Assembly: GCA_041611735.1 (NCBI GenBank)
Contig: JBFIML010000014.1
Span: 1-64,000 of the forward strand
Length of the DNA stretch: 64,000 nucleotides
Reading direction: 5' to 3'
Origin: Myxococcota bacterium
Lineage (GTDB): Bacteria; Myxococcota_A; UBA9160; PR03
Part shown: in pieces, positions 41,695 through 59,793 of the stretch
Layout: each line of letters starts with the position of its first letter
Numbering within the stretch: the stretch's first letter is position 1
Translations under genes and position numbers: made by a program
Notes under the pieces: generated by a model
Told to the model about the DNA's origin: nothing
Seen by the model: only the letters and a program-made list of their open reading frames with translations
Database searches by the model: none

Positions 41695-41766
41695 GTGGGT
41701 CCTCCCGTCGCGGGCCTGCGCCGGAGCGCCATCCTCCCGGCGCACCCCGTGGTAGCCTACCGGAGC

Positions 41767-42393
41767 ATGGCCCGTGAAGGCTCGTCGCCGTCGGCGCCGC
41801 TCCGGGAAGCTGCCGAAGCCGACCTCCTCGCACGTCTGCGGGCGGGCGACGAGAAGGCCTTCGAAGAGCTGGTGCGGCTTCTGGGCGGACGCCTGCTCGC
41901 GGTGGCCCGCCGCTTCCTCCCGGAGGAGGAGGACGCCCGGGACGCGGTCCAGGACGCCTTCCTCTCCGCCTTCCGGGGCCTGGCCCGCTTCGAGGGGCAG
42001 GCGCGGCTTTCCACCTGGCTGCACCGCATCGTCGTGAACGCGTGCCTGCTCAAGCTGCGTTCGCGCCGACGCCGGCCCGAGGAGCCCATCGACGGGCTGC
42101 TGCCGGAGTTCCTGGCCGATGGCCACTATGCGCTCCCGGCGGTCGCGTGGCGCAACGACGTCATCGCAGCGCTCGAGCGCGACGAGCTGCGCGCCCTGGT
42201 GCGCGAGGCGCTGGAACGACTTCCCGGGAGCCACCGCCTCGTGCTCCTGCTGCGCGACATCGAGGGGCTCGACACGACGGAAACCGCGCAGGCCCTCGGC
42301 ATCAGCCCGGCGAACGTGAAGGTGCGCGTCCACCGGGCCCGCCAGGCGCTGCGCACCCTGCTCGACGCTCGTTTCCGCGAGGAGGAGCCGTGA
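41767..42393 (+). CDS. ECF sigma-70 factor
   Basis: Region 2 (DAVQDAF, STWLHRIVVN) and region 4 (LLRDIEGL...VKVRVHRAR). Confidence 0.93.
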   Translation: MAREGSSPSAPLREAAEADLLARLRAGDEKAFEELVRLLGGRLLAVARRFLPEEEDARDAVQDAFLSAFRGLARFEGQARLSTWLHRIVVNACLLKLRSRRRRPEEPIDGLLPEFLADGHYALPAVAWRNDVIAALERDELRALVREALERLPGSHRLVLLLRDIEGLDTTETAQALGISPANVKVRVHRARQALRTLLDARFREEEP

Positions 42394-42638
42394 CCTGTCG
42401 CGAGTTCGTCGACTTCCTGATGGCGTACCTGGACGGGGAGCTGCGCGGCGAGGGGCGGCGGCGCTTCGACCACCACCTGGAGCGCTGCCCGCCGTGTGTC
42501 GCGTATCTGGACACCTACCGCACGACCATCGAGCTCGTGCAGACGATCTGCGGGCACCCGGACGATCCGATCCCGGCGGACGTGCCGGAGGACCTGGTGG
42601 CGGCGGTCCTGGCGGCCCGGGAGGCGCCCCGGAGCTAG
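42390..42638 (+). CDS. Zinc-binding anti-sigma factor (zf-HC2), soluble
   Basis: TCRE...YLDGEL...HLERCPPC; start overlaps the sigma stop. Confidence 0.88.
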   Translation: MTCREFVDFLMAYLDGELRGEGRRRFDHHLERCPPCVAYLDTYRTTIELVQTICGHPDDPIPADVPEDLVAAVLAAREAPRS

Positions 42639-42715: not shown

Positions 42716-42740
42716 CCCCCCGGCCGGGGGGCCTTTTTAT
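42716..42740 (+). terminator. Possible intrinsic terminator after the sigma/anti-sigma pair
   Basis: CCCCCC-GGCC-GGGGGG followed by CCTTTTTAT. Confidence 0.45.
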
Positions 42741-42797: not shown

Positions 42798-44003
42798 ATG
42801 GGGCGGCTCGCCGCCAGTCTCCTGCTCGCGGCGGGGATCGTCGTGGCGGCGGGGGTCCCCGCCCGGGCGGTGATCATCGCCTCGGGCAACGGCACCGGGA
42901 ACGCGGTGGCGCCTCCCGACGACCCGGGCTGGGCCAACCTGGGGGTGATCGGCGGTCTGAGCGCCGTCTACCTGGGCAACGGCTGGGTCGCGACCGCCCG
43001 GCACGTGGGCGCGAACACCACCCACTTCCTGGCGGTCCCGTACTCCGCGGTGGCGGGCTCCGAGGTCCAGTTCGAGACGAGCCCGGGCATCCTGGCCGAC
43101 CTCGTCGTGTTCAAGATCGAGGGCGAGCCGCCGCTGCCGTCGCTTCCCATCGCCAGCGCCCCGCCGGCCGTCGGCGCCGACGTGATCATGGCCGGGAACG
43201 GGCGCAACCGGGGTGCCCCGCTCACGTGGCAGGGCAAGCAGGGCTGGTGGTGGGGCAGCGGAAAGGCCATGCGCTGGGGAACCAACCGCGTCCAGAATGC
43301 CTCCACCAACGTGACGCTCTCCGGTACCACGACCCGCGCCTTCTCCATGGATTTCACCCAGTCGCCGCCGGCCCAGGTCACGGAGCACGAGGCGCAGTTC
43401 GCCAACGGCGACTCCGGGGGCGCCGTCTTCATCCAGACCGGGGGCGTCTGGGAGCTGGCGGGCATCAACTTCGTGCGAGCCACCTACGGCGGCCAGCCGA
43501 ACGACTCGGCCCTCTACGGCAACCTGAGCTACGCGGTCCAGCTCGCCCACTACCGGGACGCCATCCTGGCCGTGGTGACCCAGCCCGCCTGCAGCGACGG
43601 CCTGGACGACGATGGCGACGGCCTCGTGGACTGGCCCGCCGACCTGGGCTGCGACGACGCCCTCGACAGCTCGGAGTGGTCCGACTCCCTGCCCTGCGAT
43701 GACGGCAGGGACAACGACGAGGACGGCGCCACGGACTTCCCGGACGACGTGGGCTGCGCCGGCCCCCTCTCCGCCCTCGAGAACCCCCAGTGCCAGGACG
43801 GCATCGACAACGACGGCGATAGCCTGGTGGACTGGGACGGGGGCGGCGTGGGAAGCCCGGATCCCCAGTGCGTCGATCGACCCTGGCGCAACCTGGAGGC
43901 GGGCAGCTACTGCGGTCTCGGCTTCGAGCTGGCCCTGCTGCTGCCGCCCCTCGTGGCCCTCCGGCGGCGCCGCGGACGCGCTCCCGCCCAGCCCGCCGCT
44001 TGA
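42798..44003 (+). CDS. Secreted trypsin-like serine protease with Cys/Asp repeats and a C-terminal sorting-like tail
   Basis: Signal peptide ending PARA; triad TARH / ADL / GDSGG; three C-x-DG-x-D-[DN]-D repeats; CGLGFELALLLPPLVALRRRR. Confidence 0.85.
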   Translation: MGRLAASLLLAAGIVVAAGVPARAVIIASGNGTGNAVAPPDDPGWANLGVIGGLSAVYLGNGWVATARHVGANTTHFLAVPYSAVAGSEVQFETSPGILADLVVFKIEGEPPLPSLPIASAPPAVGADVIMAGNGRNRGAPLTWQGKQGWWWGSGKAMRWGTNRVQNASTNVTLSGTTTRAFSMDFTQSPPAQVTEHEAQFANGDSGGAVFIQTGGVWELAGINFVRATYGGQPNDSALYGNLSYAVQLAHYRDAILAVVTQPACSDGLDDDGDGLVDWPADLGCDDALDSSEWSDSLPCDDGRDNDEDGATDFPDDVGCAGPLSALENPQCQDGIDNDGDSLVDWDGGGVGSPDPQCVDRPWRNLEAGSYCGLGFELALLLPPLVALRRRRGRAPAQPAA

Positions 44004-44068
44004 CCCGCGCCCCCCTCCGGCGGTAGAAGCGAACTGCTCAGGACTCCAGGGAAGAGGAGGCCAAACCC

Positions 44069-44524
44069 ATGTCCGCCCGAGCCCGGTACCGTGGCGCCCT
44101 GGCCGGCGCCCTGGCCCTGGTGCTGGCCCCCGCGGCCGGCCTCGCCCAGCCCGTGGCCAAGTGGAACCCGGAGCGCATCGCCGGCTACGCGCAGCAGCTC
44201 GCCAAGGCGGGCATGGAGCTGGAGACCGCGGCCCGCAAGGCGCTGCTGCCCGGGCCGCCGCCCACGGTGTCCCAGCAGCGCGCGCGCTACGAATTCCTGG
44301 AGGCGTTGCGCTTGTTCGAGAACAGCGCCCACCACCTGGCCGAGGAGCTCAAGGCGGGCAAGGGGCGCGAGGCCACCGCGCCCACCTTCCGCCGCCTCCA
44401 GACCCTGCGCCGGGACGTGGAGGACAGCTCCCAGCGCATGGAGATCCCGGACTCCCTGCTCGCGGCCATGCTCAAGGCCGGCGAGCTCATGCTGCGCCTG
44501 GCTCCCTACTACGCGGACGTGTGA
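44069..44524 (+). CDS. Secreted hypothetical helical protein
   Basis: GAGGAGG ribosome-binding site; signal peptide ending AGLA. Confidence 0.7.
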   Translation: MSARARYRGALAGALALVLAPAAGLAQPVAKWNPERIAGYAQQLAKAGMELETAARKALLPGPPPTVSQQRARYEFLEALRLFENSAHHLAEELKAGKGREATAPTFRRLQTLRRDVEDSSQRMEIPDSLLAAMLKAGELMLRLAPYYADV

Positions 44525-44570
44525 ACCGCTGGAGATCCGGCCTGCGGCGCTCCGCGCTAGCGTCACCCCG

Positions 44571-45233
44571 ATGACCGCCTCGGGTGCCGTCCAGGTGGGC
44601 GTGATGCTGGCGCTCGCCGTCGCTCTGGCGACCAAGATCGCCGCGCAGAGGCGCCGGGGAGTCGTTCCCGTGGTGCTCGGCAAGGCTGGCGATGGCTTGG
44701 TGGCGCGCCTCGAACCCCTGGCGGCGGTCGCCCTGTTCCTCTGGTTCGCTGCGGTCGCCCTCCATGGCACGGGCTGGGCCCCCGGGCTGTTCGAGCCGCG
44801 GCTGTTCCGGTCGGCCGCGATCGAGGTGGCCGGCACCTTCGTGACGCTGGCAGCCTTCGGGCTGCTCCTCACGGCCCTGCGCCAGATGGGTCGCTCCTGG
44901 CGCATCGGTATCGATCCCGGCAGCCACGAGGCGTTGGTCACCGAGGGCGTCTTCGCCCTCTCCCGGAACCCCATCTACTTCGCCATCGACCTGCTCGCGC
45001 TCGGCGCCTTCCTCGTCTCGGGCTCGCTGTTCTTCCTGGTCTCCGGGCTCCTCATCGCAGCGGACATCCACATCCAGATCCTGCGCGAGGAGCGCTTCCT
45101 GACCACGACCTTCGGCGACCGCTACGCGCGCTACCGCGCACGAGTGCGGCGCTACTTCGGCCGCCGCGGGAAGAGCCCGGAGCCGACACCGGGGCAGGGC
45201 GACCGCACTGGAGCCGCCCTGCCCCGACCGTGA
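44571..45233 (+). CDS. Isoprenylcysteine carboxyl methyltransferase (ICMT/PEMT) family membrane protein
   Basis: MGRSWRIGID, LVTEGVFALSRNPIY, EERFL...FGDRYARY...VRRY. Confidence 0.85.
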   Translation: MTASGAVQVGVMLALAVALATKIAAQRRRGVVPVVLGKAGDGLVARLEPLAAVALFLWFAAVALHGTGWAPGLFEPRLFRSAAIEVAGTFVTLAAFGLLLTALRQMGRSWRIGIDPGSHEALVTEGVFALSRNPIYFAIDLLALGAFLVSGSLFFLVSGLLIAADIHIQILREERFLTTTFGDRYARYRARVRRYFGRRGKSPEPTPGQGDRTGAALPRP

Positions 45234-45240
45234 AGGCCGG

Positions 45241-45714
45241 CTAGCGCACGAGCTGGAACGAGCGCGTGGGATGGGTGAGCGTGGGTGCAGGCTCGCCCTG
45301 GACCGGGTCCGTGACCAGGCGGTCGCCCTTCCCGCGCAGACCCGGGCGGGAGAAGGGATCACTGGCCGCGTCCGCATCCGGGGCCGCGGCGTCCTCGCAG
45401 TAGCCGAAGGCCCAGTCCCGGCAACTTCCCCCCTCCAGGGGGTCGTCGAGGATCACCTCGCACATCTCGCAGGCGAAGACCGCCACGTCCAGGCAGCTCT
45501 CGCACTCCCGCCCGCCGGCGTAGTTGTCCGTGCAGGCCTCGCCCAGCGTGTCCAGCAGCTTGAAGCAGGGGTGCGGCCCGCTCGAATCCCCGGCGTTGTC
45601 CGCGGCGTGCGCGCTCAGCGGCCCGCCCGTCAGCAGGACGATGCCGAGCGCCACCACCGCCGTCCTCCAGTTGCCCCGGGTCCCCGCCCGAAGCGCAGTC
45701 TCGATCTCGCTCAT
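45241..45714 (-). CDS. Secreted cysteine-rich hypothetical protein
   Basis: GAGGAGGAG ribosome-binding site, signal peptide ending SAHA, 8 Cys including CESC and CEMC. Confidence 0.6.
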   Translation of the reverse strand: MSEIETALRAGTRGNWRTAVVALGIVLLTGGPLSAHAADNAGDSSGPHPCFKLLDTLGEACTDNYAGGRECESCLDVAVFACEMCEVILDDPLEGGSCRDWAFGYCEDAAAPDADAASDPFSRPGLRGKGDRLVTDPVQGEPAPTLTHPTRSFQLVR

Positions 45715-45804
45715 CGACGTCTCCTCCTCGTGCCGGCCGCGCGGGCCGGCGTGGGGAGGGAGTGCGCGGGAGCGCCGGAATCGGATCAGCCCGCCAATCA
45801 AAGG

Positions 45805-45835
45805 GAACGCCCCCGGCGGAGGGCCGGGGGCGTTC
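45805..45835 (-). terminator. Hairpin, probable terminator of the CAP-domain gene
   Basis: 13-bp perfect stem GAACGCCCCCGGC/GCCGGGGGCGTTC; followed by CCTTTGATT on the minus strand. Confidence 0.6.
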
Positions 45836-45877
45836 GGGAACCGGAGACCGGGGCTGGAGCCGGCGCCGTGTGCCTGT

Positions 45878-46726
45878 CTAGGCCCGGCGGCGGCGGGCCC
45901 GGAGGGCGGCCAGGGGCGGCAGGAGCAACGCCAGCTCGAAGCCCAGGCCGCAGTGCGCGTTGCTCTCGGACCACTGCTCCGGGGCGGCGCAGCCGGGGTC
46001 GTCGGGGTGGTCGACGAGGCCGTCCCCGTCGTTGTCGATCCCGTCGCTGCAGTCCGGCGCCTCCGAGGGATCGTCCGCAGAGCTGCAGTTGAAGTCGCCC
46101 AGGAAGTCCGTGTAGCCGTCGCCGTCGTCGTCCAGGCCGTTGTCACAGGCGGGGGGCTCGGGTTCCTCGCAGCTTCCGGGCTCCACCGGCGCCTCGCTCG
46201 CGTTCCCGAAGTCCGCCGTCCACCAGTGGGGCTGCACCGTGACGCCGTAGGGCTGCAGCACGCAGAGCGCGGGCCCCACCGCGTGGCCGACCCCCACGTG
46301 ACGCGCGTTGGCGTTCAGCAGGATGGCGCGGTGGGGGGTCGAGCCCATCCATCCCTGGACGATCTGGGCCGGGGTGGTCTGGCCTGCTCCCGCCGCCTCG
46401 GAGCCCCCGGCCGGGTAGCCGGCGTCCCGCATCCGGCTGCGAGCGGTGGAGCCGTCGGAGCCCGTGTGGGACAGGAAGCATCCGTCGCGCATGTCCTCGC
46501 TGTGGCGCACGGCGGCGGCCATCAGGCGGCCGTCGATCTGGACCGGGGAGAGGCCGTTGCCCGCCCGCTCCAGGTTGATCCGTTCCACCACCTCCGCCTC
46601 CTCGGCCGTCGGCGTGGGGCAGGCGGACTGGGCGCGGGCCGGGAGCGGGGCCAGGGACGCCGCGACCAGGGCCAGCGCGAGCGCCAGGGCCAGCCCGAGG
46701 TTCGTGTCTCGCCCGCTTCCGTCCAT
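45878..46726 (-). CDS. Secreted CAP/SCP domain protein with Cys/Asp repeats and a C-terminal sorting-like tail
   Basis: INLERA, AAVRHSEDM, SHTGSDG, WMGSTPHRAILL, WTADFG; two repeats; CGLGFELALLLPPLAALRARRRRA. Confidence 0.88.
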   Translation of the reverse strand: MDGSGRDTNLGLALALALALVAASLAPLPARAQSACPTPTAEEAEVVERINLERAGNGLSPVQIDGRLMAAAVRHSEDMRDGCFLSHTGSDGSTARSRMRDAGYPAGGSEAAGAGQTTPAQIVQGWMGSTPHRAILLNANARHVGVGHAVGPALCVLQPYGVTVQPHWWTADFGNASEAPVEPGSCEEPEPPACDNGLDDDGDGYTDFLGDFNCSSADDPSEAPDCSDGIDNDGDGLVDHPDDPGCAAPEQWSESNAHCGLGFELALLLPPLAALRARRRRA

Positions 46727-48065: not shown

Positions 48066-48173
48066 GTCGCTTCCAGCATGTAAGCAAGCCCCTCGTGAGC
48101 GTCAAGGGCGCGGCGCGGTGTGCCGGAGCGCCGCAGGCGAGCAGCTCGTCCGTCCCCACGGGGACCTATTGGC

Positions 48174-48201
48174 TCAAGGAGGTTTTCGCAGCGCCCGATC
48201 A
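48174..48201 (+). promoter_or_regulatory. sigma28-like promoter upstream of the histidine kinase/pilus operon
   Basis: TCAAG-N15-CCCGATCA. Confidence 0.4.
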
Positions 48202-48254
48202 GTTGCCGTAGGGGCGGAAGCGTCACCGGGGGGGGGCAGGTGCGTGCCAACGCG

Positions 48255-50075
48255 ATGACAAGCGAGCGCTTCGGCCTCATGGTGATCGGCTCGGCGCTGC
48301 TCGTCATCGTGGCGGTCGCGGGCCTGCTGCTGGGATTGCAGCGCGACGCGCGACGTGAGCAGGCCCGGGCCCAGGGCGTGAGCCTGGTGCGCCTGCTCTC
48401 GCGGGTTCCCCTGGAGCAGCTGCTGGGAGGAGCGGGCGTCCAGGGCCCGTTGCAGCTCATCAAGCACAGCCAGGGAAACCCGGACTTCGCCTATGCCGCG
48501 GTGGTCGATCCCGGCGGCCGCATCCTCGCCGAGGTCACGGCGCCGGGCGCCATCGTTCCCACGCGCCCACCCGCTGCCGAGCCGTCCGCCTGGATCGGCG
48601 AGCGCAGCATCGAAGCGAGCGACGGAGGAGCCGCCCTGCGCGAGTTCCACGCCCCGGTGCTGGCCGGCAGCGCACGGGTCGCGGAGCTGCGCATGGGGTT
48701 CCGGGAGCCCGGCTGGCTCGTCGCGCTCGCCCAGGTGCCCCTGCTGGCCTCCATGGCGCTGCTCATCTTCCTGCTCGCCCCCCTCTCCTACTTCCTGCTA
48801 CGTCGCGAGGTGAGCCCACTCGCCACCGCGAACGCGAAGATCCAGCGGCTGCTGGAGGGAGAGCACCTCGAGCCGGTGCGCATCGAGGCGACCGGCGTGC
48901 TGGCCGAGTTCGCCGAGCGCTTCAACTCGCTGGTGAGCCTGGCGGAGTCGCGCGTGCGGGCCCTCGAGAGCCGGGAGATGGATCTCCTGGCTTCTTCGAA
49001 GGTCCTCTCCTACCGCACCCACCGGCTCGAGGCGGTCCTCGAGGGCCTCCCGGACGGGGCACTCGTGCTCGACGAGACGGGAGCAGTCTCGTTCGCGAAC
49101 GCCAAGCTCGAGGCGCTGCTGGGCGTGGCGCCCGAGGCGGCGCGCGGTCGGCCGCCGCGGGAGTGGTGCCCGGACCCGTCCCTGGTCTCCTTCCTGGCCT
49201 TCTATGCGGGGGATGGGCCGCGCCTCGCCCGCAGCGAGCGTCTGGAGCTCGAGCGCAGCGAGAAACGGCTCCAGGTGGGCGCCCACCCCCTGGTCGCCCC
49301 GAACGGCGGTCCGGAGCCGGCCGGAACCCTGGTCCTGGTGCGCGACGTGACCGCGGAGCGTCTCTCGGCTCGCAGCCAGGCCGAATTCGTCTCCCACGTC
49401 GCCCACGAGCTCAAGGCCCCGCTCAACGTCCTGGCCATGTACAGCGAGACGTTGCTGGGAAAGGACGGCGCGTCCGAGGACTTCCGCATCGAGGCGTGCA
49501 ACGTGATCCAGGACGAAGTGGAGCGCCTCACCGCGCTGATCAACACCATGCTGAGCATCGCGCGCCTCGAGACGGGGGCGGTCTCCCTGGAGCGGCAGCG
49601 AGTGCGCCTGCCGGAGTTCCTCCAGGACGCTCTCGACGCCGCTTCGCGGGGCGGCCGCCGGGCCGGCTTGCGCTTCGAGCTGTGCGTGCCCCGGGAGATT
49701 CCGGCCATCCACGTGGACAAGGAGCTGCTGCGGGTCGCGGTGAACAACCTGCTGACCAACGCCATCAAGTACAACCAGGACGCCGGCGAGGTCGTACTCT
49801 CCGCGGAGGACTCCGGAGACCACATCACGATCCGGGTGCGCGACACGGGCATCGGCATCACGCCCGAGGAACGCGGCCGCATCTTCGAGAAGTTCTACCG
49901 CTCCGATCGCGAGGAGGCGCGCCGCCGCGGGGGCCACGGCCTGGGCCTCTCCCTGGCCCGGGAGATCGTGGAGCGCCATGGCGGCCGGATCGAGGTGGAG
50001 AGCACACCGGACCAGGGCAGTGCATTCCTCCTGGTGCTGCCCAAGACCCCGGCCCTCAACCAGGAGGTGGTCTGA
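48255..50075 (+). CDS. Membrane sensor histidine kinase with PAS domain
   Basis: Two TM segments, PAS (GLPDGALVLD...FAN), H-box AHELKAPL, NLLTNAIKY, DTGIGI, GHGLGL. Confidence 0.93.
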   Translation: MTSERFGLMVIGSALLVIVAVAGLLLGLQRDARREQARAQGVSLVRLLSRVPLEQLLGGAGVQGPLQLIKHSQGNPDFAYAAVVDPGGRILAEVTAPGAIVPTRPPAAEPSAWIGERSIEASDGGAALREFHAPVLAGSARVAELRMGFREPGWLVALAQVPLLASMALLIFLLAPLSYFLLRREVSPLATANAKIQRLLEGEHLEPVRIEATGVLAEFAERFNSLVSLAESRVRALESREMDLLASSKVLSYRTHRLEAVLEGLPDGALVLDETGAVSFANAKLEALLGVAPEAARGRPPREWCPDPSLVSFLAFYAGDGPRLARSERLELERSEKRLQVGAHPLVAPNGGPEPAGTLVLVRDVTAERLSARSQAEFVSHVAHELKAPLNVLAMYSETLLGKDGASEDFRIEACNVIQDEVERLTALINTMLSIARLETGAVSLERQRVRLPEFLQDALDAASRGGRRAGLRFELCVPREIPAIHVDKELLRVAVNNLLTNAIKYNQDAGEVVLSAEDSGDHITIRVRDTGIGITPEERGRIFEKFYRSDREEARRRGGHGLGLSLAREIVERHGGRIEVESTPDQGSAFLLVLPKTPALNQEVV

Positions 50076-50461
50076 TGGCCCACATCCTCGTCGTGGACGA
50101 CGAAGCGCACGTGACGAGGGTCACGCGCATGGCGCTGGAGCGCGCCGGCCACCAGGTCGCAGTGGCTTCGGACGGCGCCGAGGCCTTCGCCCTGCTCGAA
50201 GCGCAGCCCTTCGACGTGCTGATCACGGACATCACCATGCCGCGCCTGGGCGGGATCGAGCTGTGCGAGAAGGCCCGTCACGAGCTCGGGCACACCAACT
50301 TGCATCTGTTCGTGATGACGTCGCGAGTGGAGAACGAGTTCCGAGACCGGGCGAAGCGTCTCGAGCCAGTCGAGTTCGTGGAGAAGCCCGTCAGCCTGCG
50401 TCGGCTCGTGGCCCGGGTCGGCGCCCGCCTCGAAACCACATCCTCCAGAGATGCCGAGTGA
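50075..50461 (+). CDS. Single-domain response regulator (receiver)
   Basis: ILVVDDE, ITDITMP, MTS and EKP motifs. Confidence 0.9.
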   Translation: MAHILVVDDEAHVTRVTRMALERAGHQVAVASDGAEAFALLEAQPFDVLITDITMPRLGGIELCEKARHELGHTNLHLFVMTSRVENEFRDRAKRLEPVEFVEKPVSLRRLVARVGARLETTSSRDAE

Positions 50462-51978
50462 CCCGGGACCCGCTCAAGGAGCTCAAGCTCCACAAGTATC
50501 GCCCGCTGCTCCAACCGCGGGCGTTGCGCGATTGCCCGGCGGCCCTGTGCGACGCCGACGGGCACCCGCTGTGGGCGCCGCGCGAGGAGGACGCTCGCGC
50601 GGTGGCGGCCGCCTGCGTGCGGATCTTCGAGCGCGGCTTCGGCTGGGACAGCGAGGACGAGACCCGCCGCGTGGAGCTGGACGGCACCGAGACGCTCTTC
50701 TATCGCCCGGTGCCGGCGGCCGGCGGCCCGCTCGCCTGGCTCGTGCTGCTGGTCCCGGCGGCCCAGCGCGCCACCGGCGCCACGGACCTCGACGCCGTCG
50801 ACGACATCCTGCGCGGCGTCACCGCCTGCCTGGCGGAAGAGCACCGGCTCAACGGAGAGCTCTACGGCCTCGCCGAGGAGCTCTCCCATCGCTACGAAGA
50901 GCTCAACATGCTCTACTCGCTGCGCGAGGGCGTCCCCGAAGAGGGCGATCGCTCGGTGCAGCGCTTCCTGGACGGCTTCGCCGAGCTGATCGACGTGGAC
51001 GTGGCCGCCTTCGTCACCGTCGGGCGCACCCTGCCCATCCACGCCACCAACCTGAGCCGACCAATCCCCAATCTCGACCTGGTGCTGGTGGCCCTGCGCG
51101 GCGACCTGTTCCGCTTCGTGCAGGCGAGCCGCAAGATCCTGGTGCTGAACGCCGAAGACGACCCCCGCCGGGCCTTCGTCTTGACCAACATGCCCTTCAA
51201 GATGCTCGCGTGCCCCCTCGGCGACACCGGGACCGTCGATCACATGCTGGTTCTCCTGCGTCACACGCAACGGCCGGATTTCTCCAACAGCGATCGCAGC
51301 CTGGCCCGCGTGGTCACCGACCAGGTCGGCCTGATGCTCCGCAACCAGTCCATGATGGGTCGCCTGAAGCGCTTCGGCGAGCAGACGGCCGGAGCCCTGA
51401 TCGAGGCGCTGGAGGCGAAGGACCCCTACACGCGCGGGCACTCGGAGCGCGTGCAGATCGTATCCATCGAACTCGGTCGCGCGCTCGGCTTCCAGCCGCC
51501 CGAGCTCGAGGACCTGTTCTGGGGCTCCATCTTCCACGACGTCGGCAAGCTCGGCGTACCGGACGCGATCCTGTGCAAGCCAGGTCGTCTCACCGCGGAC
51601 GAGTACGACTTCATCAAGATCCACCCGGAGCGCAGCTACGAGATTCTGAAGCACGTGGAGTACCTGCGCCAGGACGCTCTGCACGGCGCACGCCACCACC
51701 ACGAGCGCTTCGACGGACTGGGCTACCCACACGGGCTGAGCGGCCGAGCGATCCCCCTGCAAGCGCGCATCATCGCGGTGGCCGACACCTACGACGCGGT
51801 CACGAGCTCGCGCTCCTACCGCGCCGGACGCAGCCACGATGAGGCGATGGCCGTGATCCGCGAGGCGGCGGGCACCCAGCTCGATCCCCAGATCGTGGCC
51901 CGCCTGGAGGAGCTCTGCACCGACGGCCCCCGGTGGCCGGCGCGCGGCAGCCTAGAGACCCTCGTCGGCGATGGCTGA
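50458..51978 (+). CDS. HD-GYP cyclic-dinucleotide phosphodiesterase with N-terminal sensory (GAF-like) region
   Basis: AKDPYTRGHSERV, HDVGK, HHHERFDGLGYP, IAVADTYDA. Confidence 0.92.
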   Translation: MTRDPLKELKLHKYRPLLQPRALRDCPAALCDADGHPLWAPREEDARAVAAACVRIFERGFGWDSEDETRRVELDGTETLFYRPVPAAGGPLAWLVLLVPAAQRATGATDLDAVDDILRGVTACLAEEHRLNGELYGLAEELSHRYEELNMLYSLREGVPEEGDRSVQRFLDGFAELIDVDVAAFVTVGRTLPIHATNLSRPIPNLDLVLVALRGDLFRFVQASRKILVLNAEDDPRRAFVLTNMPFKMLACPLGDTGTVDHMLVLLRHTQRPDFSNSDRSLARVVTDQVGLMLRNQSMMGRLKRFGEQTAGALIEALEAKDPYTRGHSERVQIVSIELGRALGFQPPELEDLFWGSIFHDVGKLGVPDAILCKPGRLTADEYDFIKIHPERSYEILKHVEYLRQDALHGARHHHERFDGLGYPHGLSGRAIPLQARIIAVADTYDAVTSSRSYRAGRSHDEAMAVIREAAGTQLDPQIVARLEELCTDGPRWPARGSLETLVGDG

Positions 51979-54001
51979 GATCTCGCGCTCGCGCATCGGG
52001 GTCGCCACCTACCTGATCCCCGACGGCCCGCTGGTGGAGGAGACGCGCCTGTCGGCGCTCCAGAGCGCCGTGGAGGTCTGCCTGCGCGACCGCGAGTTCG
52101 AGCTGGTGCTCGACCTGGCGGGCGTGTCCCTGGTGAGTGGCGCCGCCCTCGAGCTGCTTCTCGACCTCCAGGACCGGCTGGCTCGCTCGGGAGGCTCGCT
52201 CCGGGTGGCCCACCTGAACCCGGTGCTGACCGACGTCTTCCGCATCACGGGACTGGCGGGACGCATCGCCATCCTCGACCGCAGCGATGCGGTGGAGGCG
52301 GCCGGCGCGCGCCTGGACGGCCGCCCCGCGCGCCGCATCGGCGAGATCCTGTTGGAGAAGGACTTGGTGTCGCCGGAGACCATCGAGAAGGCCCTGGCGC
52401 TGCAACGCCAGACCGGCGGGCGCATGGCCCAGCTCATGGTGGAGCAGGGCTGGCTCGCCGAGAAGGACCTGCTCCAGTCTCTGAGCGAGCAGCTCGGCGT
52501 GCCCTTCGTCTGGCTGCGCCCGGGCGTCTACGACCCGGCGGCGGTGACGACGATCGAGCGCGAGGTCGCGCTGCGGCTGCGGGTGGTACCGCTGTTCCAG
52601 GTCCGCGGGGTGATCCTTCTGGCCACCCCGGATCCCCAGTCGGTGCCTGCCATGGATGCGGTGGAGGACCTGACCGGCTGCAAGGTGAAGCCGGTCCTGG
52701 CCTGCTCGGAGGAGATCCGCACCACGATCGAGGAGGCCCACAGCGGCAAGCAGGACCTGGCCGAGTACATCGGCGACCTCCAGGGCGACCTCGAGCTGGT
52801 GGAGAGCCGCTCCGAAGACGAGGGGTTGATCGATCAGCTCGCCTCCGGCAGCCCCGTCATCAACCTGATCAACGGGGTGATCCAGCGCGCGGTGCGAGAC
52901 GGCGCCAGCGACATCCACATCGAGCCGTCCCGCAGCCGCACCCGCATCCGCCTGCGCGTGGACGGCGTGCTGTATCCGATCATGGCGCCTCCGATCGAGG
53001 TGCACTCGGCCCTGGTCTCGCGCCTCAAGGTGATGGCCAGCCTCGACATCGCCGAGCGCCGCCAACCTCAGGATGGGCGCATCCAGGTAATGACCCAGGG
53101 TCGGGCGGTGGACCTCCGCTTCAGCTCCCTGCCGGGGATCTTCGGCGAGAAGATCGTGCTGCGCGTGCTGGACAAGAACCGCTCCATCCTGGAGGTCGGA
53201 AAGCTCGGGCTGGCAACCCACAACGAGGAGCGCTTCAAGCGCCTCTTGAGCCGCAGCTACGGCCTGCTCCTGGTCACGGGACCGACCGGGAGCGGCAAGA
53301 CGACGACTCTCTACGCGGCCGTGAATCATCTGACCAGCGACGAGAGGAACATCGTCACCATCGAAGACCCGGTCGAGTACCAGATCGATGCCATCAACCA
53401 GAACCAGGTCCGGGACCAGATCGGCCTCAGCTTCGCCAAGATGTTGAAGCACGTGCTGCGTCAGGATCCCGACGTGATCATGGTGGGCGAGATCCGGGAG
53501 CGCGAGACCGCGGAGATCGCGGTGCAGGCCGCCCTCACCGGGCACCTGGTGCTCTCCACCCTGCACACCAACGACAGCATCGGTGCAATGACGCGGATGC
53601 TCGACATGGGTGTCGAGCCCTTTCTGCTCTCGTCGGCGCTGGTGGGTGTGGTGGCCCAACGGCTGCTGCGCCGGGTCTGCTCGGAGTGCGAGACCAGCTA
53701 CGTGGCTCCGCCGGAGCTGCTGGAGCCCTACGGCATCCACCGCGGCGAGAAGATGCGTCTCAAGCGGGGACGCGGCTGCTCGGCCTGCTACGACTCCGGC
53801 TACCGGGGCCGCATGGCGATCCACGAGCTGCTGGAGAGCGACGCCGAGCTGCAACGCCTGGTGGTGGCGAACCCCTCCCGGGACCAGCTCGAGCAGTACA
53901 TGCGGAGCAGGCAGCTGAAGACGCTCCTGCACGACGGCGTGGAGCGCGCCCTCCAGGGCCAGACGACCCTCGAGGAGGTCCTGCGCGTGGTGAACGCGTG
54001 A
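51971..54001 (+). CDS. GspE/PilB-family assembly ATPase with N-terminal STAS and MshEN-like domains
   Basis: STAS (LVLDLAGV...VFRITGL), RIGEILL...LALQ, ASDIHIEP, GPTGSGKTTT, LRQDPD, CSEC/CSAC. Confidence 0.92.
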   Translation: MAEISRSRIGVATYLIPDGPLVEETRLSALQSAVEVCLRDREFELVLDLAGVSLVSGAALELLLDLQDRLARSGGSLRVAHLNPVLTDVFRITGLAGRIAILDRSDAVEAAGARLDGRPARRIGEILLEKDLVSPETIEKALALQRQTGGRMAQLMVEQGWLAEKDLLQSLSEQLGVPFVWLRPGVYDPAAVTTIEREVALRLRVVPLFQVRGVILLATPDPQSVPAMDAVEDLTGCKVKPVLACSEEIRTTIEEAHSGKQDLAEYIGDLQGDLELVESRSEDEGLIDQLASGSPVINLINGVIQRAVRDGASDIHIEPSRSRTRIRLRVDGVLYPIMAPPIEVHSALVSRLKVMASLDIAERRQPQDGRIQVMTQGRAVDLRFSSLPGIFGEKIVLRVLDKNRSILEVGKLGLATHNEERFKRLLSRSYGLLLVTGPTGSGKTTTLYAAVNHLTSDERNIVTIEDPVEYQIDAINQNQVRDQIGLSFAKMLKHVLRQDPDVIMVGEIRERETAEIAVQAALTGHLVLSTLHTNDSIGAMTRMLDMGVEPFLLSSALVGVVAQRLLRRVCSECETSYVAPPELLEPYGIHRGEKMRLKRGRGCSACYDSGYRGRMAIHELLESDAELQRLVVANPSRDQLEQYMRSRQLKTLLHDGVERALQGQTTLEEVLRVVNA

Positions 54002-54008
54002 GGGCGCC

Positions 54009-55124
54009 ATGCCCCTCGAGATCCCTTCGGCCGCCGCGCCGGCGCCGCGCTCCGGCTCGGCCCGGCGCCCGGCCGCTTCGCGCCGTGCCCGGTTCGGCGC
54101 GAAGGAGCGCATGTTCTTCACCGAGCGCCTCGCCCTCCTGCTCGACACCGGCGTCCCCCTGCACGCGAGCCTGGAGACCCTGAGCCGCCAGGCGCAGGAT
54201 GCGGAGACGCGCCGCATCTTCGGCAGCGTGGCCGACGACGTGGCCTCCGGCCTCTCCTTCGCGCGCGCCCTGGGCCGGCATCCGGGAGCCTTCCCGTCCA
54301 CCTACGTAAATCTCGTGGATGCCGCGGAGCGGGGCGGCTTCCTGCCCCGGGTCCTCGAGCGGCTGCGCGCCATGGACGAGCGCCGCGAGGAGCTGCGCTC
54401 GGTCCTGTGGGCCGCCTTCTCGTACCCGGTCTTCCTGGTGTTCTTCTCGACCGCCGTGGTGGTCTTCGTGCTGGTGGTCGTGTTCCCGAAGTTCGCGGAT
54501 CTCTTCCAGGAGATCCGGGACGCCCTGCCGCCCACGACGCGTCTGTTCATGGCCCTGAGCGACCTGCTGCGTCACCAGTGGCCCTTCGTGCTCGGCGGGC
54601 TCGCTGCCGCCGGGGCCGGCCTGCTGGCCTGGCTGAGACGGCCGCAGGGGGCGGAGTTCGCGGAGCGCGTGCTGCTCGGAACCCCCGGCCTGCGCACCGT
54701 GGTGGTCGAGCTCCAGCTCGTGCAGTTCCTGAGCGTGATGAGCCTTTCGCTCGGGAACGGCGTCCCGATGCTCGACGCCCTGCGCGCCTGCCGGGAGATC
54801 GTGCCCGGCCGCCGCTTCCGGCGCTTCGTGGAGCGGCTCGAAACCAGCGTCACGGAGGGGCGCGGCGTCAGCCCGGCGTTCCAGAGCGAGAGGTTCCTGC
54901 CGGCCCTGGTGCCGCAGATGATCGGGACCGCCGAGGAGAGCGGAAGCCTGGCCGCCGTGATGGGGCGGGTCGCCGACTTCTACGAGCGCGAGCTTCGCAA
55001 GCGGCTCCAGACCCTGGCCAAGATCGTGGAGCCGGCGCTGCTCGTGGTGATGGGGGCGGTGGTGGGGCTGATCGTGGCCTCCCTGATCCTGCCCATCTTC
55101 AAGCTGTCCCGGACCGTTCGCTGA
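54009..55124 (+). CDS. GspF/PilC-family inner membrane platform protein
   Basis: LLDTGVPL, AERGGFL, YP, VFPKF, AEESGSL and IVEP motifs. Confidence 0.92.
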   Translation: MPLEIPSAAAPAPRSGSARRPAASRRARFGAKERMFFTERLALLLDTGVPLHASLETLSRQAQDAETRRIFGSVADDVASGLSFARALGRHPGAFPSTYVNLVDAAERGGFLPRVLERLRAMDERREELRSVLWAAFSYPVFLVFFSTAVVVFVLVVVFPKFADLFQEIRDALPPTTRLFMALSDLLRHQWPFVLGGLAAAGAGLLAWLRRPQGAEFAERVLLGTPGLRTVVVELQLVQFLSVMSLSLGNGVPMLDALRACREIVPGRRFRRFVERLETSVTEGRGVSPAFQSERFLPALVPQMIGTAEESGSLAAVMGRVADFYERELRKRLQTLAKIVEPALLVVMGAVVGLIVASLILPIFKLSRTVR

Positions 55125-55150
55125 CCCCCTGGGGACGCCCACTCACCGGC

Positions 55151-55178
55151 TCAAGTCGCGCCCGACCAGGGCCGATAG
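55151..55178 (+). promoter_or_regulatory. sigma28-like promoter upstream of the pilin gene
   Basis: TCAAG-N15-GCCGATAG, close to the FliA/SigD consensus. Confidence 0.55.
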
Positions 55179-55229
55179 GCAGGGGGCTCCGGCGCCTGCA
55201 GGCCGCCGGCAACAGGATGGGAAGGAGCC

Positions 55230-55733
55230 ATGAAGCAGATCGAGATCCTCCGGCGCCGCGAGCGCGGCTTCACCCTGGTCGAGCTGCTGATCGTCGTGAT
55301 CATCCTCGCAATCCTGGCGGCGATCGTGGTGCCCCAGTTCACGGCCTCCACCAGCGACGCCCGCGAGGCGGCGGTCGACAGCACGCTGCAGAACATGCGC
55401 TCCGCCATCGACCTGTACCGGCAGCAGCACGACGCCTACGCGGCGAACGGGGCCGACGTGACCGATCAGGCCGCGGCCACCACGCTCTTCTTCGACCACA
55501 TGCTCAAGTACACCAACGAGACCGGGGGCGTCAGCGCCACCAAGAACGCGGCTTTTCCCTACGGCCCCTACCTGCGCAAGAAATCGCTTCCCAGCGTGAA
55601 GGGCAGCGAAACCCTCGTGATCAGCAATAGCACCACCGTGCCCCTCGACGTCTCCACGGGGACCGGCGGCTGGATCTACTCCTGGGAAACCGGCCAGTTC
55701 ATGGCCAACCATCCCGACTACCAGGATCGCTGA
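55230..55733 (+). CDS. Type IV pilin / GspG-like major (pseudo)pilin
   Basis: RG|FTLVELLIVVIILAILAAIVVP prepilin motif with Glu5; AAGGAG ribosome-binding site. Confidence 0.93.
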   Translation: MKQIEILRRRERGFTLVELLIVVIILAILAAIVVPQFTASTSDAREAAVDSTLQNMRSAIDLYRQQHDAYAANGADVTDQAAATTLFFDHMLKYTNETGGVSATKNAAFPYGPYLRKKSLPSVKGSETLVISNSTTVPLDVSTGTGGWIYSWETGQFMANHPDYQDR

Positions 55734-55853
55734 TCGGGGTCGAGACGTGTTGTGCGCGCGACCGCCGTCCGCAGGAGGCTGGCATGACACGGAGGGCGCT
55801 CGCGTTCCCTGACGGCGCAGCCCGCGCGACGCGGGCCGGACCCGGGTGGGATC

Positions 55854-57083
55854 ATGCCGGCTGACTCCTCCCCGGATGCATCGTCCGAGACCCAGCCGCA
55901 GGCCGCCGGCCTGTTGCGGCCCCTGTTCCACGCCTGGTCCACCACCCGCTTCGCAGCCGACGACCTGAGCTCCTACGCCGAGCGCCTCATGATCGAGGAG
56001 ACGCGCCGCGGCCTGATCGCCATGGCGGCGGTCTTCCTGATCCTGCTGGCGGCCTTCGCCCTGGTCTCCGCCCGGCTCGAACTGGATCGCTCCTACGTGT
56101 ACACGAGCGCGGCCCTGGGCGCCCTGGCCATCCACGTGTGTTTCGCAGCCCGGGCCATCCACGAGATCCGCACCCTCCACGTGCTGGGCATGACGCTGCT
56201 GGTCATCAGCGGCTCCTCCTTCGTCCTGCTGGCCCACCGCGCGGGCGGCTTCGGGGCGGCCCTCTTCAGCGCGGTGGTTTTGCTCTACATGGTGGTCCCC
56301 ATGGTGCCGTGGGGGCTGCGGGAAGCCTCCATCGTCACCATGCTGATCTACGGACTCTTCTCCTCCTCCATCTGGAGCGTGGCGGAGCGCTTCGATGCCC
56401 AGACCGCGTGGGCGCTCCAGGTCTTCATGCTGACCGCCGGGGCCGTGAGCCTCACGCTGGTCGCGCGCGGGGCGAACGTGCGTAAGGCCGACATCCGCGC
56501 CCGCTTCGATCTGGAGAGTGCGCACCGGGAGCTCGAGCGCCTGAGCCGGGAGGACCCGCTCACCGGCGCCTGGAACCGCCGCTTCCTCGAGTCGGAGTTC
56601 CCGGCCTTGCTGGAGCGGCTGCGCAAGGCGCAGCACAACGGCTACTTCGCCCTGCTGGACCTGGACCACTTCAAGCAGCTGAACGACACCTGCGGGCACG
56701 CCCACGGCGACCGCGTGCTGCAGCTCGTCGGACAGGTCTTCCGGGAGCACGTGGCGGAGACGGGGCACCTGGTCCGGACCGGCGGCGACGAGTTCACCCT
56801 GCTCACCGAGGGAGAGGATCCGGAGCCCACCATCGCCGAGGCCGTCGAGGCGGTGCGGGAGGCTGCCGGCGGGGGCCCCGGCGCCCCGCCCTTCTCCATC
56901 AGCGTGGGTCTCGTCGTGCTGCCGCCCGGGGCCACGGTCAGCCTCGAGCGGGCCTATCGCCGTGCCGACCAGGCCTTGTATCGGGCCAAGGCGCGGCGCG
57001 ACCCTCAGGCGGGGAGCAGCCGCGTGGTCCGCGTCGGCTTGTCCGCCCGCTCGGCGTCTCTCCCGGCAGGCGAAATTCGATGA
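55854..57083 (+). CDS. Membrane-bound diguanylate cyclase
   Basis: About six TM segments, DPLTGAWNRR, DLDHFKQLND, RTGGDEF, SVG, ADQALYRAK. Confidence 0.92.
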   Translation: MPADSSPDASSETQPQAAGLLRPLFHAWSTTRFAADDLSSYAERLMIEETRRGLIAMAAVFLILLAAFALVSARLELDRSYVYTSAALGALAIHVCFAARAIHEIRTLHVLGMTLLVISGSSFVLLAHRAGGFGAALFSAVVLLYMVVPMVPWGLREASIVTMLIYGLFSSSIWSVAERFDAQTAWALQVFMLTAGAVSLTLVARGANVRKADIRARFDLESAHRELERLSREDPLTGAWNRRFLESEFPALLERLRKAQHNGYFALLDLDHFKQLNDTCGHAHGDRVLQLVGQVFREHVAETGHLVRTGGDEFTLLTEGEDPEPTIAEAVEAVREAAGGGPGAPPFSISVGLVVLPPGATVSLERAYRRADQALYRAKARRDPQAGSSRVVRVGLSARSASLPAGEIR

Positions 57084-58192
57084 CGACGGCCACGCTCTGG
57101 AGCGCGCTGCGTCGACGCCTGGACCCCGGCGGCCGCGCTCCCATCGGCCTCGTCCTGGACGGGAATCGCATCGAGCTCCTCCAGCTCGAAGGCTCGCCGC
57201 AGCAGCCGCGCGTGCGGGCCTGCCTGACCCTGGACCGAGCCGACGGCGGAGAGCTCCTCCCCAGCCGCGATGCCCTGCGAAGCCTGCTCGGCCCGCGCCT
57301 GCGCCAGACGGGCTTCCGGGGGCGCCGCACGGTCACAGCCATGCCGGCGAGCCAGGTCAAGCTCATGGTGGTGAACTACGGCCTCGAGTCGAACCGCGAC
57401 GAGGCGGAGCTCATCCTGCGTCTGGTCGCCGAGCGGGTGCCGCAGCCCCTCGCGCAGTGCGTGGTGGACTACCTGCCGATCCGCACCGCCAGCGAGAGCG
57501 AGAAGTCGGCGCTGGTGGCCGTGGCCCAGCGCGAGAACGTGATCGGCTATCTGGAGCTCTTGCGCGCGGCCGGGCTTCAGGTGGAGGCGCTCGAGATCGA
57601 GCCGGTCGCCATGCGCCGCCTCGTGATGCGGCTCTCCCAGGACGAAGCGAAGGAGAACATCCTGGTCCTCAACGGGGGCGCGACCCGTAGTGACCTCACC
57701 GTGTTCTGGGGGCGGCGCCTGATCCTCTACCGGGAGCTGGAGTTCGGCGAGTCGCGAGCCGTCGAGCGTCTGAGCCGGACGCTCGAGATGAGCCCCGAGT
57801 CGGCGGTTTCGGTGCTGCGGGAGTACGGCTTCCGGTCGCCGGTATCGCCAGCGGACCTCGGGGGCGGTCCTCCGCCCCACGAGATCAGCCAGGCGGTGCG
57901 CGAGATCCTGAAGGCCGAGTTCGACCGGGTGGCCGAATCGGTGCGCAACGCCCTGGCCTACACCGCCTCCCGCACGCGCGGCGGGGCCGTGGACGCCGTC
58001 TACCTGGTGGGGAGCATCGTGCGCTGGCCCGAGGTGGAGCACGTGCTGCAGGAGCGCCTCGCGCTCCCGGTCGAGATCCTGGATCCGCGCGCGGCCTTCG
58101 ATCCGAGTCGCGCCGAGCTGGGCTCTGCGGCGCCGGCGCCCTCGGCAATCGTGGCGGGCCTGGCCCTGCGAGGGGTCGGCCATGAGTCATGA
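57080..58192 (+). CDS. PilM-like protein
   Basis: PIGL N-terminus, VDY, AGLQVEALEIEP, VYLVG, AGLALRG; first gene of the M-N-O-P-Q order. Confidence 0.8.
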   Translation: MTTATLWSALRRRLDPGGRAPIGLVLDGNRIELLQLEGSPQQPRVRACLTLDRADGGELLPSRDALRSLLGPRLRQTGFRGRRTVTAMPASQVKLMVVNYGLESNRDEAELILRLVAERVPQPLAQCVVDYLPIRTASESEKSALVAVAQRENVIGYLELLRAAGLQVEALEIEPVAMRRLVMRLSQDEAKENILVLNGGATRSDLTVFWGRRLILYRELEFGESRAVERLSRTLEMSPESAVSVLREYGFRSPVSPADLGGGPPPHEISQAVREILKAEFDRVAESVRNALAYTASRTRGGAVDAVYLVGSIVRWPEVEHVLQERLALPVEILDPRAAFDPSRAELGSAAPAPSAIVAGLALRGVGHES

Positions 58193-59398: not shown

Positions 59399-59793
59399 CG
59401 GGCGGACCCACGAAGCTCGGCGCCGTGCTGCTGGCGCTGGGGCTCTTCTCCCTGCCCGGGCGGGCGGAGGATGCCGCGCCGGCAACGGGTGCCCCGGGGC
59501 TTCCCGCCGAGCCGATTCCGATGCTGCGCTTCAACCCCTTCGTCCCGCCCGCCGTGCTGGGGCGCGGCGGGGGCGAAGTGGCCGGCGCGCCGGGCTTCGG
59601 CGCTTTCCCGCGGCTTACCGGGACGCTGGTGGCGGGCCCCCAGTCGCTGGCCAACCTGGGCGGATGGATCCTCGGCCTCGGGGAGGAGGCTCACGGCTAC
59701 CGGCTGGTCGAGGTGCGCGAGGGCGAAGCGGTCTTCGAGCGGGACGGTCGTCCGCTGGTGCTGCGTGTGGACGACGAGGAGGCGGCGCCGTGA
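59395..59793 (+). CDS. PilP/GspC-like protein
   Basis: Signal or TM segment, NPF, LTGTL...A...GEE pattern; sits before the secretin. Confidence 0.65.
   Translation: MTGGPTKLGAVLLALGLFSLPGRAEDAAPATGAPGLPAEPIPMLRFNPFVPPAVLGRGGGEVAGAPGFGAFPRLTGTLVAGPQSLANLGGWILGLGEEAHGYRLVEVREGEAVFERDGRPLVLRVDDEEAAP

Follow-up and report, generated by a model that had tools for sequence, protein, structure and literature searches.

The window analyzed here, a stretch of 64,000 nucleotides (64 kb) with a G + C content of about 73% at the start of contig JBFIML010000014.1 of a Myxococcota bacterium, contains two genes for secreted proteins, a trypsin-like serine protease and a CAP/YkwD-family protein, which end in the same short C-terminal tail. 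This raises the question whether the tail is a protein sorting signal and, if so, how it relates to the signals described so far. The tail consists of the signature C-G-[LI]-G-[FA]-E with an invariant Cys, an abutting short Leu-rich segment with a near-invariant Pro (L-A-L-L-x-P-x-L...) and an Arg cluster at the extreme C-terminus. In an uncultured lineage of the Myxococcota it is found, several times in a genome, at the ends of many hydrolases and adhesin-like proteins that are unrelated to each other, and it is best read as a new Cys-type tripartite sorting signal that is closest to MYXO-CTERM and Synerg-CTERM. That the tail is a genuine sorting-type domain not covered by an existing model is held to be very probable, whereas a mechanism of the Mrt type, proposed by analogy, is given about even odds. 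The favored explanation as a whole, a modular tripartite Cys-type sorting signal with Mrt-like processing by analogy with MYXO-CTERM and MrtX, is assigned a rough probability of 0.55.

The protease gene (42798..44003, + strand) codes for 401 amino acids with matches to the Pfam families Trypsin_2 (E = 7.8e-8) and Trypsin (E = 1.8e-5). Its open reading frame (ORF) ends in ...SYCGLGFELALLLPPLVALRRRRGRAPAQPAA*, with the Cys codon at 43911. The tail of the protease (43911..44000, + strand) is a member of alignment A2, which comprises 66 tails, and reads CGLGFELALLLPPLVAL followed by RRRRGR and seven further residues; the core is located at 43911-43952 and the Arg cluster at 43962-43979. The CAP protein gene (45878..46726, - strand) codes for 282 amino acids, identical in sequence to the protein cluster P0001, with a match to the Pfam family CAP (E = 1.1e-17) and a match to the NCBIfam YkwD family that lies below the cut-off (63.3 bits). 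This ORF ends in ...AHCGLGFELALLLPPLAALRARRRRA*; its Cys codon lies at 45952-45950 and its stop codon at 45880-45878. Its tail (45881..45952, - strand), the first row of alignment A2, reads CGLGFELALLLPPLAAL followed by RARRRRA.

By a six-frame motif scan, CGLGFELALLLPPL followed by an Arg cluster was found at exactly two ORF ends in the window. The 14-residue core is identical in both proteins, and the six differences among its 42 nucleotides are all synonymous, five of them at third codon positions and one at the first position of a CTG/TTG pair. The identity is thus kept at the peptide level and does not stem from a recent duplication of the DNA or gene conversion. Signal-peptide-like N-termini are present in both the protease (MGRLAASLLLAAGIVVAAGVPARA...) and the CAP protein (MDGSGRDTNLGLALALALALVAASLAPLPARA...). 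An earlier, sequence-only reading of this DNA had placed the motif at the ends of these two proteins, with an identical core in different codons and with signal peptides on both, and the ORFs and the motif scan agree with it on each of these points. Its further statement that the main domains are unrelated stands for the trypsin and CAP domains, but both proteins carry acidic double-disulfide repeats (NF033662, CxDGxDxDxDGxxDxxxDxxC units) as a linker before the tail. In the protease the linker (43584..43910, + strand) comprises three stretches with 40.8 bits against a cut-off of 41, and in the CAP protein (45980..46153, - strand) two stretches with 46.4 bits. The two linker regions can be aligned with each other (BLASTP E = 1e-9 over the repeats). 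Since the repeats directly precede both tails, the shared C-terminal module consists of repeat linker plus tail.

The tail was searched for in other organisms at the protein and at the DNA level. With the 40 C-terminal residues of the CAP protein as query and a restriction to longer proteins, 47 matching proteins were obtained among 611 candidates, and in all 47 the pattern C-G-x-G-x-[E/G]-L-A-L..P.. with an Arg cluster is located within the last 60 residues. According to precomputed Pfam assignments, the N-terminal domains of these proteins vary and include lysyl oxidase, S8 peptidase, matrixin, PKD, BNR/sialidase-like and FG-GAP domains. For the DNA scan, the motif CG-x-GFE-[L/F]-A-[L/F] was back-translated to a DNA pattern and searched in one genome per GTDB species, by which at least 115 loci were matched. 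Matches were classified by script as true tails if a stop codon followed within 62 codons, if 5-14 residues without Asp or Glu preceded the first Arg or Lys, and if at least three Arg or Lys occurred within eight residues; five tails were added by eye (L025, L030, L058, L077, L083) and the duplicate locus L081 was left out. Among the matches listed, 69 were accepted as true tails, located on 68 loci, and chance was taken to account for 46 matches, of which L056 is ambiguous. The chance matches come from unrelated taxa such as Buttiauxella, Gordonia and Leifsonia and do not form C-terminal tails.

The tails, at least 69 in number, are spread over at least 40 assemblies, all of which are metagenome-assembled genomes (MAGs), and the maximum per assembly is at least five among the matches listed. 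Of the 40 listed assemblies, 32 carry the label Myxococcota, Myxococcales, Myxococcaceae or (uncultured) Deltaproteobacteria, five "uncultured Spirochaetales" and one Gemmatimonadota, and two are unclassified. The tails from the "Spirochaetales" assemblies are typical (L013, L017, L019, L035, L038, L088, L093, L099, L100, L115), and these five assemblies show the same modules in front of the tail as the Myxococcota MAGs. Due to these shared modules and a G + C content of 66-73%, the "Spirochaetales" labels look unreliable. For the window itself, the relatives of its HemE protein that carry an organism name, three rows among the 120 listed, are 76-78% identical and are all assigned by NCBI to "Myxococcota bacterium". 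The closest locus among the matches listed, L031, has 70% nucleotide identity in the CAP gene.

Alignment A2 was further used as a profile against 1.84 billion representatives of clusters at 50% identity. In total, 1592 representatives were matched at E <= 0.001, 174 of them at E <= 1e-10. The motif is present in all of the 150 best matches, in 142 by regular expression and in eight by eye with deviations of one residue. The distance from the Cys to the C-terminus among the best 150 of 1592 is 21-90 residues with a median of 26, and exceeds 45 residues in 10 of the 142 matches found by regular expression. The motif is thus limited neither to the two proteins of the window nor to a single genome, and it is found at the C-termini of proteins with signal-peptide-like N-termini. 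Since the tail recurs in 47 of 47 matches of the protein search and in 1592 profile matches, chance is excluded.

The export of the carriers was addressed with a crude script that detects a hydrophobic N-terminal segment and is not a trained predictor; it was positive for 104 of 108 full-length protease homologues and for 0 of 90 cytoplasmic HemE proteins as control. In more diverse sets, 25 of 33 proteins from the search with the CAP tail and 42 of 63 from the profile search were positive, and the misses look like N-terminally truncated predictions from metagenomes. For 46 of the at least 69 tail-bearing ORFs, those with enough upstream sequence, a Pfam scan was carried out. Pfam matches were obtained for 35 of them, distributed over 17 family groups, and 11 had no match. 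The most frequent families are S8 subtilases and FG-GAP/ASPIC (six each), followed by Abhydrolase_10 and CAP (three each), PAF-AH/PETase-like, beta-helix, PKD and DUF7467 (two each), and trypsin, M23, CotH, GSDH, BNR, DUF3604, M11-like, DUF7453 and RCC1 (one each).

The conservation of the tail was determined in two sets. The consensus of the best 150 profile matches is C-G-[IL]-G-F-E-L-A-[FL]-L-L-P-P-L-M-W-L-[RHY]-x-R-R-R-R; in the 142 matches found by regular expression the Cys is single, Glu occurs at position +5 in 140 and Pro at position +11 in 135. As a sample that was not selected by the motif, the top 120 among 562 homologues of the full-length protease (E <= 1e-5) were used, 96 of which contain CGxGx[E/D/G] in the last 80 amino acids. 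Of these 96, 95 have Glu at +5 and 91 have Pro at +11. Position +4 is occupied by Phe in 51 and by Ala in 40, and the second Pro of the "PP" in the window is not conserved. Of the remaining protease homologues, eight have looser tails resembling C-G-L-L-G-x-E/D, seven have other hydrophobic-plus-basic tails that lack the Cys motif, which indicates tail swapping, four end in a different, non-membrane domain and five look truncated or frameshifted. One of the swapped tails matches IPTL-CTERM weakly (14.2 bits).

A conservation of this kind bears on the possibility that the tail stays uncleaved and anchors periplasmic enzymes by their C-termini in the inner membrane, with no need for a dedicated sorting enzyme. 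A hydrophobic segment and a cytoplasmic Arg cluster would suffice for a stop-transfer anchor, and the lack of an identified enzyme (see below) fits with it. But in unrelated proteins from dozens of species, C, G, G, E and P would not stay near-invariant if the tail were a mere anchor, and a hydrophobic span of about 15 residues that includes a Glu and a Pro would form a poor stable helix, which makes this explanation highly improbable.

In front of the tail there is usually one of a small number of conserved modules: "DPQC..PWRN.E", which corresponds to the second half of an acidic disulfide repeat, "EACVTGE.LDGTPFEGCD.I.TVPA", or "L.QG.LLPKDR..." at the end of Abhydrolase_10 proteins. These modules suggest that the tail is recombined onto different stalks. 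The tail is internal in a few records. In L030 (1955-3667, - strand) the frame continues for 271 codons past the Cys, and the proteins P0148 and P0066 contain two tails each, of which the first one of P0148 is followed by a signal-peptide-like stretch. These internal tails look like tandem genes merged by a lost stop codon or by gene prediction. Two to three tandem tail-bearing S8 subtilase genes are located in L080 (- strand; tails at 1943-3406 and 3410-4024), and two near-identical tails are found 1.8 kb apart on one contig (L099/L100).

For the comparison with named C-terminal signals, the model libraries NCBIfam 20.0 (June 2026) and Pfam were used, with cut-offs of 20 bits for MYXO-CTERM (TIGR03901.2), 22.5 bits for Synerg-CTERM (TIGR04564) and 16 bits for PEP-CTERM (TIGR02595). 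No CTERM model of either library was matched at its cut-off where scores were listed. The sole NCBIfam CTERM match of the protease tail is to Synerg-CTERM with 11.4 bits, the CAP tail has none, and no Pfam CTERM family was found on the proteins of the window at E <= 1; likewise, none of 12 full-length carriers matches any CTERM model at E <= 1. At E <= 10, weak matches were obtained for the 66 tails to Synerg-CTERM (7), GlyGly-CTERM (7), MYXO-CTERM (4) and PVV-CTERM (4), the best E-values being about 1e-3 (MYXO-CTERM 0.001, Synerg-CTERM 0.0011, GlyGly-CTERM 0.0017; bit scores were not listed), and CGP-CTERM and JDVT-CTERM are absent among the families matched. The weak matches were regarded as generic similarity of hydrophobic-plus-Arg segments, and membership in Synerg-, MYXO- or PVV-CTERM was therefore rejected; for GlyGly-CTERM, whose cut-off was not listed either, membership is regarded as improbable. 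The view that the motif fits none of the named CTERM classes, which had been taken from the letters alone, is thereby borne out where scores were listed. Together with the spread of the motif and its C-terminal position, this supports the earlier reading as a sorting signal. Searches of open PMC and bioRxiv by motif and by topic led to no description of the tail; besides unrelated work, the topic search gave the two myxosortase papers cited below.

Cys-containing tripartite signals as such are already known. Haft described four of them, MYXO-, JDVT-, Synerg- and CGP-CTERM, and assigned to them proteases of the CPBP/Rce1 type called Mrt (10.1101/2023.06.07.544157). According to the same work, the transmembrane (TM) segment of MYXO-CTERM is free of charged residues and Pro and the signal often contains a second Cys, while the Leu-rich TM segment of Synerg-CTERM contains an invariant Pro (10.1101/2023.06.07.544157). 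For MYXO-CTERM, Guo, Haft and Wall (2025) reported that MrtX cleaves the signal in a Cys-dependent manner, and they proposed an order of lipidation, cleavage distal to the Cys and export via a type II secretion system (T2SS) (PMC11980579).

With MYXO-CTERM, which is processed by MrtX, MrtC or MrtP of the CPBP/Rce1 family, the tail shares the phylum, the invariant Cys (47 of 47 proteins; 32 of the 40 listed assemblies carry the Myxococcota-type labels given above), the tripartite layout, the occurrence on many unrelated secreted proteins per genome, an enzyme gene that is not beside the targets and the expected use of a T2SS. The tail differs in its single Cys within C-G-[LI]-G-[FA]-E, as compared to GCGC, in the near-invariant Glu and Pro in the hydrophobic segment, which MYXO-CTERM lacks by definition, and in its length (about 23-26 amino acids vs. 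about 34); it has been seen only in MAGs so far. Synerg-CTERM (MrtS, Synergistota) resembles the tail in being a short Cys-type signal with no spacer before the TM segment and with a conserved Pro in a Leu-rich TM segment, and it is one of the two models most often matched weakly. In the tail, by contrast, the Cys is not preceded by a Ser/Gly-rich cluster and is followed by G-L-G-F-E, the phylum is another one, and the scores remain below 22.5 bits. The archaeal CGP-CTERM (C-G-P) and JDVT-CTERM (DP motif before a Leu-rich TM segment) differ from the tail in its signature C-G-[LI]-G. Because the tail departs from the MYXO-CTERM features and fails the models, it was filed neither as MYXO-CTERM nor as Synerg-CTERM.

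The tail could nevertheless be the diverged MYXO-CTERM of this lineage, processed by an ordinary myxosortase orthologue (MrtX, MrtC or MrtP), so that no separate class would exist. Besides the common phylum, Cys and layout and the four weak matches among 66 tails, this is favored by the statement of Haft that signals and enzymes co-evolve in lineage-specific forms, not all of which can be covered by one hidden Markov model (10.1101/2023.06.07.544157), and by the absence of a canonical GCGC-type tail among 84 neighbor ORFs and 120 protease homologues. Against it stand the near-invariant Glu and Pro and the single Cys, which contradict the features stated for MYXO-CTERM, the shorter tail and the 12 full-length carriers that do not match the model; nor do the proteins or tails of the window match it at E <= 10. 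This possibility is considered unlikely.

The weak matches to GlyGly-CTERM (TIGR03501) point to another alternative, in which the tail would be a GlyGly-CTERM-like signal: a rhombosortase (a serine protease of the rhomboid type) would cut it, and a glycerophospholipid would be attached afterwards. The Gly-rich signature at the membrane interface (G-x-G) is a common feature, the seven matching tails reach E = 0.0017, and GlyGly-CTERM proteins, which include T2SS-dependent surface proteases, are T2SS users as well (PMC11980579). The matches are weak, no more frequent than those to Synerg-CTERM and missing for the proteins and tails of the window, while the invariant Cys and the Glu and Pro of the tail have no counterpart in GlyGly-CTERM. 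The scans of the window and of the 84 neighbor ORFs also revealed no rhomboid gene. Processing by a rhombosortase is very unlikely.

A second sorting signal is present in the same lineage. Bona fide PEP-CTERM proteins (TIGR02595) are encoded in L031 (161-847, + strand, 21.8 bits) and in L034 (2826-3695, - strand, 22.4 bits), and the two genes adjoin tail-bearing CAP and trypsin orthologues; at least two C-terminal sorting signals thus operate in parallel in this lineage. With these two neighbors as positive control, none of the 66 tails matches TIGR02595 even at E <= 10. Like PEP-CTERM, the signal of exosortases, the tail has a signature that abuts the TM segment, a conserved Glu and an Arg cluster, and both signals occur in the same genomes, each on many secreted proteins. 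Unlike PEP-CTERM, it lacks the PEP motif and has an invariant Cys, and the two signals are found on separate sets of proteins.

Hence it has to be considered that an enzyme of the exosortase family recognizes the tail as its cognate signal. The tail would then be a non-PEP variant of the kind of PEF-, PGF-, IPTL- or VPDSG-CTERM and would be cleaved by an exosortase paralogue with an active-site Cys instead of a CPBP protease. Exosortases are presumably present, given the PEP-CTERM genes beside tail-bearing genes in L031 and L034, the near-invariant Glu of the signature (95 of 96) recalls P-E-P, its G-F is also contained in the motif of PGF-CTERM, and some protease homologues carry IPTL-like or PEP-like tails instead. 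In addition, look-alike clusters from Verrucomicrobiota and Planctomycetota in the ESM-Atlas carry the PEP-CTERM family PF07589 (score 0.89), which are to be taken as leads only. Apart from the missing model matches, an invariant Cys defines the class processed by Mrt proteases and is foreign to the known exosortase signals (10.1101/2023.06.07.544157). Moreover, with canonical PEP-CTERM in the same genomes a second, dedicated exosortase would be required. An exosortase as the processing enzyme is therefore regarded as doubtful, although with some chance of being correct.

In the favored explanation, a Cys-type signal with Mrt-like processing, the tail-bearing proteins would be exported via Sec and retained by the tail in the inner membrane, with the Arg cluster on the cytoplasmic side. 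The Cys would then be lipidated, and a dedicated glutamic intramembrane protease of the CPBP/Rce1 type, similar to Mrt and encoded elsewhere, would cut just distal to it. The proteins would finally be displayed on the surface in a T2SS-dependent manner, with the acidic disulfide repeats serving as a stalk.

The enzyme was searched for in the window and in the neighborhood of the tails. Pfam was applied to 47 ORFs of the window selected by GC3 (G + C content at third codon positions) and to 47 six-frame ORFs covering the gaps, and NCBIfam to 18 ORFs. No CPBP, exosortase or rhomboid gene was detected in the 64 kb by these scans, so that a sortase within the window was rejected, in line with the previous suggestion that it is encoded outside. 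In the 2-kb flanks of the loci, none of 84 ORFs matches an exosortase, rhomboid, CPBP or PEMT/ICMT family; they represent a housekeeping mix with no enriched family, and an identification of the sortase by neighborhood was likewise rejected. The lack of a co-located enzyme gene is consistent with the analogy to Mrt systems, as the myxosortase is never co-operonic with its targets according to Haft (10.1101/2023.06.07.544157).

Several points weigh against the favored explanation. Neither the window nor the 84 flank ORFs yielded a sorting enzyme, and cleavage, lipidation and surface location of the tail proteins are predictions by analogy. The analogy is one of mechanism and not of membership, since the TM segment of MYXO-CTERM contains no charged residues or Pro in the description by Haft, and the conserved Glu and the G-x-G of the tail recall PEP-CTERM and GlyGly-CTERM. 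The exosortases that are presumably present along with PEP-CTERM in the same genomes could process the tail. On the side of the methods, the invariance seen in A2 is partly circular, because C, G, G, F, E and A were forced by the DNA scan, the sequence logo of the best 150 is inflated by the profile selection, and the signal peptides were assigned by the crude script mentioned above.

Between the two tail-bearing genes of the window, a membrane methyltransferase of the ICMT/PEMT family is encoded (44571-45233, + strand), a neighbor that is at most a candidate member of the system. It matches PEMT (E = 1.9e-9) and ICMT (E = 6.7e-4) in Pfam, and its best NCBIfam match is NF040696, protein-S-isoprenylcysteine O-methyltransferase, with 52.7 bits vs. 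a cut-off of 160. This position recalls the eukaryotic and archaeal CAAX processing (prenyl transfer, Rce1, ICMT), to which the proposed Cys-based C-terminal processing by a CPBP-family protease would be analogous. The tail would then be a bacterial counterpart of this pathway, with lipidation of the Cys, an Rce1-like cut and methyl-esterification of the lipid-Cys carboxylate by the ICMT-family enzyme, whose gene is located downstream of the protease gene on the same strand. In contrast to the four-residue CAAX box, the tail comprises about 25 residues including a TM segment.

The genes around the two tails were compared with the 115 loci listed by tblastn, and for the 151-residue ORF downstream of the protease, the ICMT-like protein, the Cys-rich ORF, ORF46750, the ECF sigma factor and the anti-sigma factor no match was obtained; only the protease and CAP domains were found again (L034; L031, L025, L077). 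As no homologue of the methyltransferase occurs in the limited flanks of any locus, including four orthologous protease/CAP loci, its adjacency is not conserved, and it was rejected as a conserved partner and kept as a low-probability lead only. The two myxosortase papers mention neither a methylation step nor a methyltransferase or ICMT (10.1101/2023.06.07.544157, PMC11980579). A counterpart of CAAX processing is the least probable of the explanations considered.

The remaining neighborhood of the two genes comprises regulatory genes and further secreted proteins. The protease gene is immediately preceded by the genes for an ECF sigma factor (41695-42393, + strand) and a short ZAS-type, RsrA-like zinc-finger anti-sigma factor (42393-42638, + strand); a terminator-like hairpin (42716-42731, + strand) lies between these and the protease gene. 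Downstream of the protease gene the 151-residue secreted ORF (44069-44524, + strand) and downstream of the CAP gene a Cys-rich secreted ORF of 157 residues (45241-45714, - strand) are located, both with no family match. Directly 3' of the CAP stop codon lies a strong terminator-like hairpin (45805..45835, - strand) with a 13-bp stem containing 11 G-C pairs, which was found by a consensus scan only.

A regulatory and secretion cluster extends from 48120 to 61145 (+ strand) and includes a PAS histidine kinase and an HD-GYP-type protein. Within it, 5 kb from the tail-bearing genes, a cluster resembling T2SS and type IV pilus systems was found (51971-61145, + strand). Its ATPase is GspE-like with an N-terminal STAS domain and a cyclic-di-GMP-binding MshEN domain, and the other members are GspF, a GspG-like pseudopilin, a GGDEF protein, a PilM-like protein, a weak GspM match and a secretin. 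This cluster may be the T2SS that exports the tail-bearing proteins.

Two further genes of the window were noted. A phosphatidylcholine-synthase-like membrane protein (20306-21082, + strand; NF045886, 175.6 bits, below the cut-off of 440 bits) is encoded next to the haem-synthesis genes hemH, hemE and hemF. The gene at 61566-63551 (- strand) codes for a large secreted protein that contains CBM96/disaggregatase-like repeats and two DNRLRE domains (NF033679, 189.7 bits) and lacks a sorting tail at its C-terminus.

C-terminal sorting tags decide which proteins Gram-negative cells show on their surface. To our knowledge, each new tag so far has led to a new or newly assigned enzyme, namely exosortase, archaeosortase, rhombosortase and myxosortase. 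While Cys-class tripartite signals were already known, the apparently un-modelled tail and its abundance in an uncultured Myxococcota lineage are new. A model of the tail would improve the annotation of MAGs, and the tail is a precise starting point for identifying its enzyme through phylogenetic profiling. With Cys, Glu and Pro fixed in a membrane segment of 15 residues, it is also a good substrate for studying how intramembrane sorting proteases read a TM helix. With 1592 representative clusters at 50% identity, the tail appears to serve a large uncultured branch of the Myxococcota as its main tag for surface display, and the carriers of the tail, which include proteases, lipases/esterases, CAP proteins and integrin-like repeat proteins, likely represent a predatory or degradative exoproteome.

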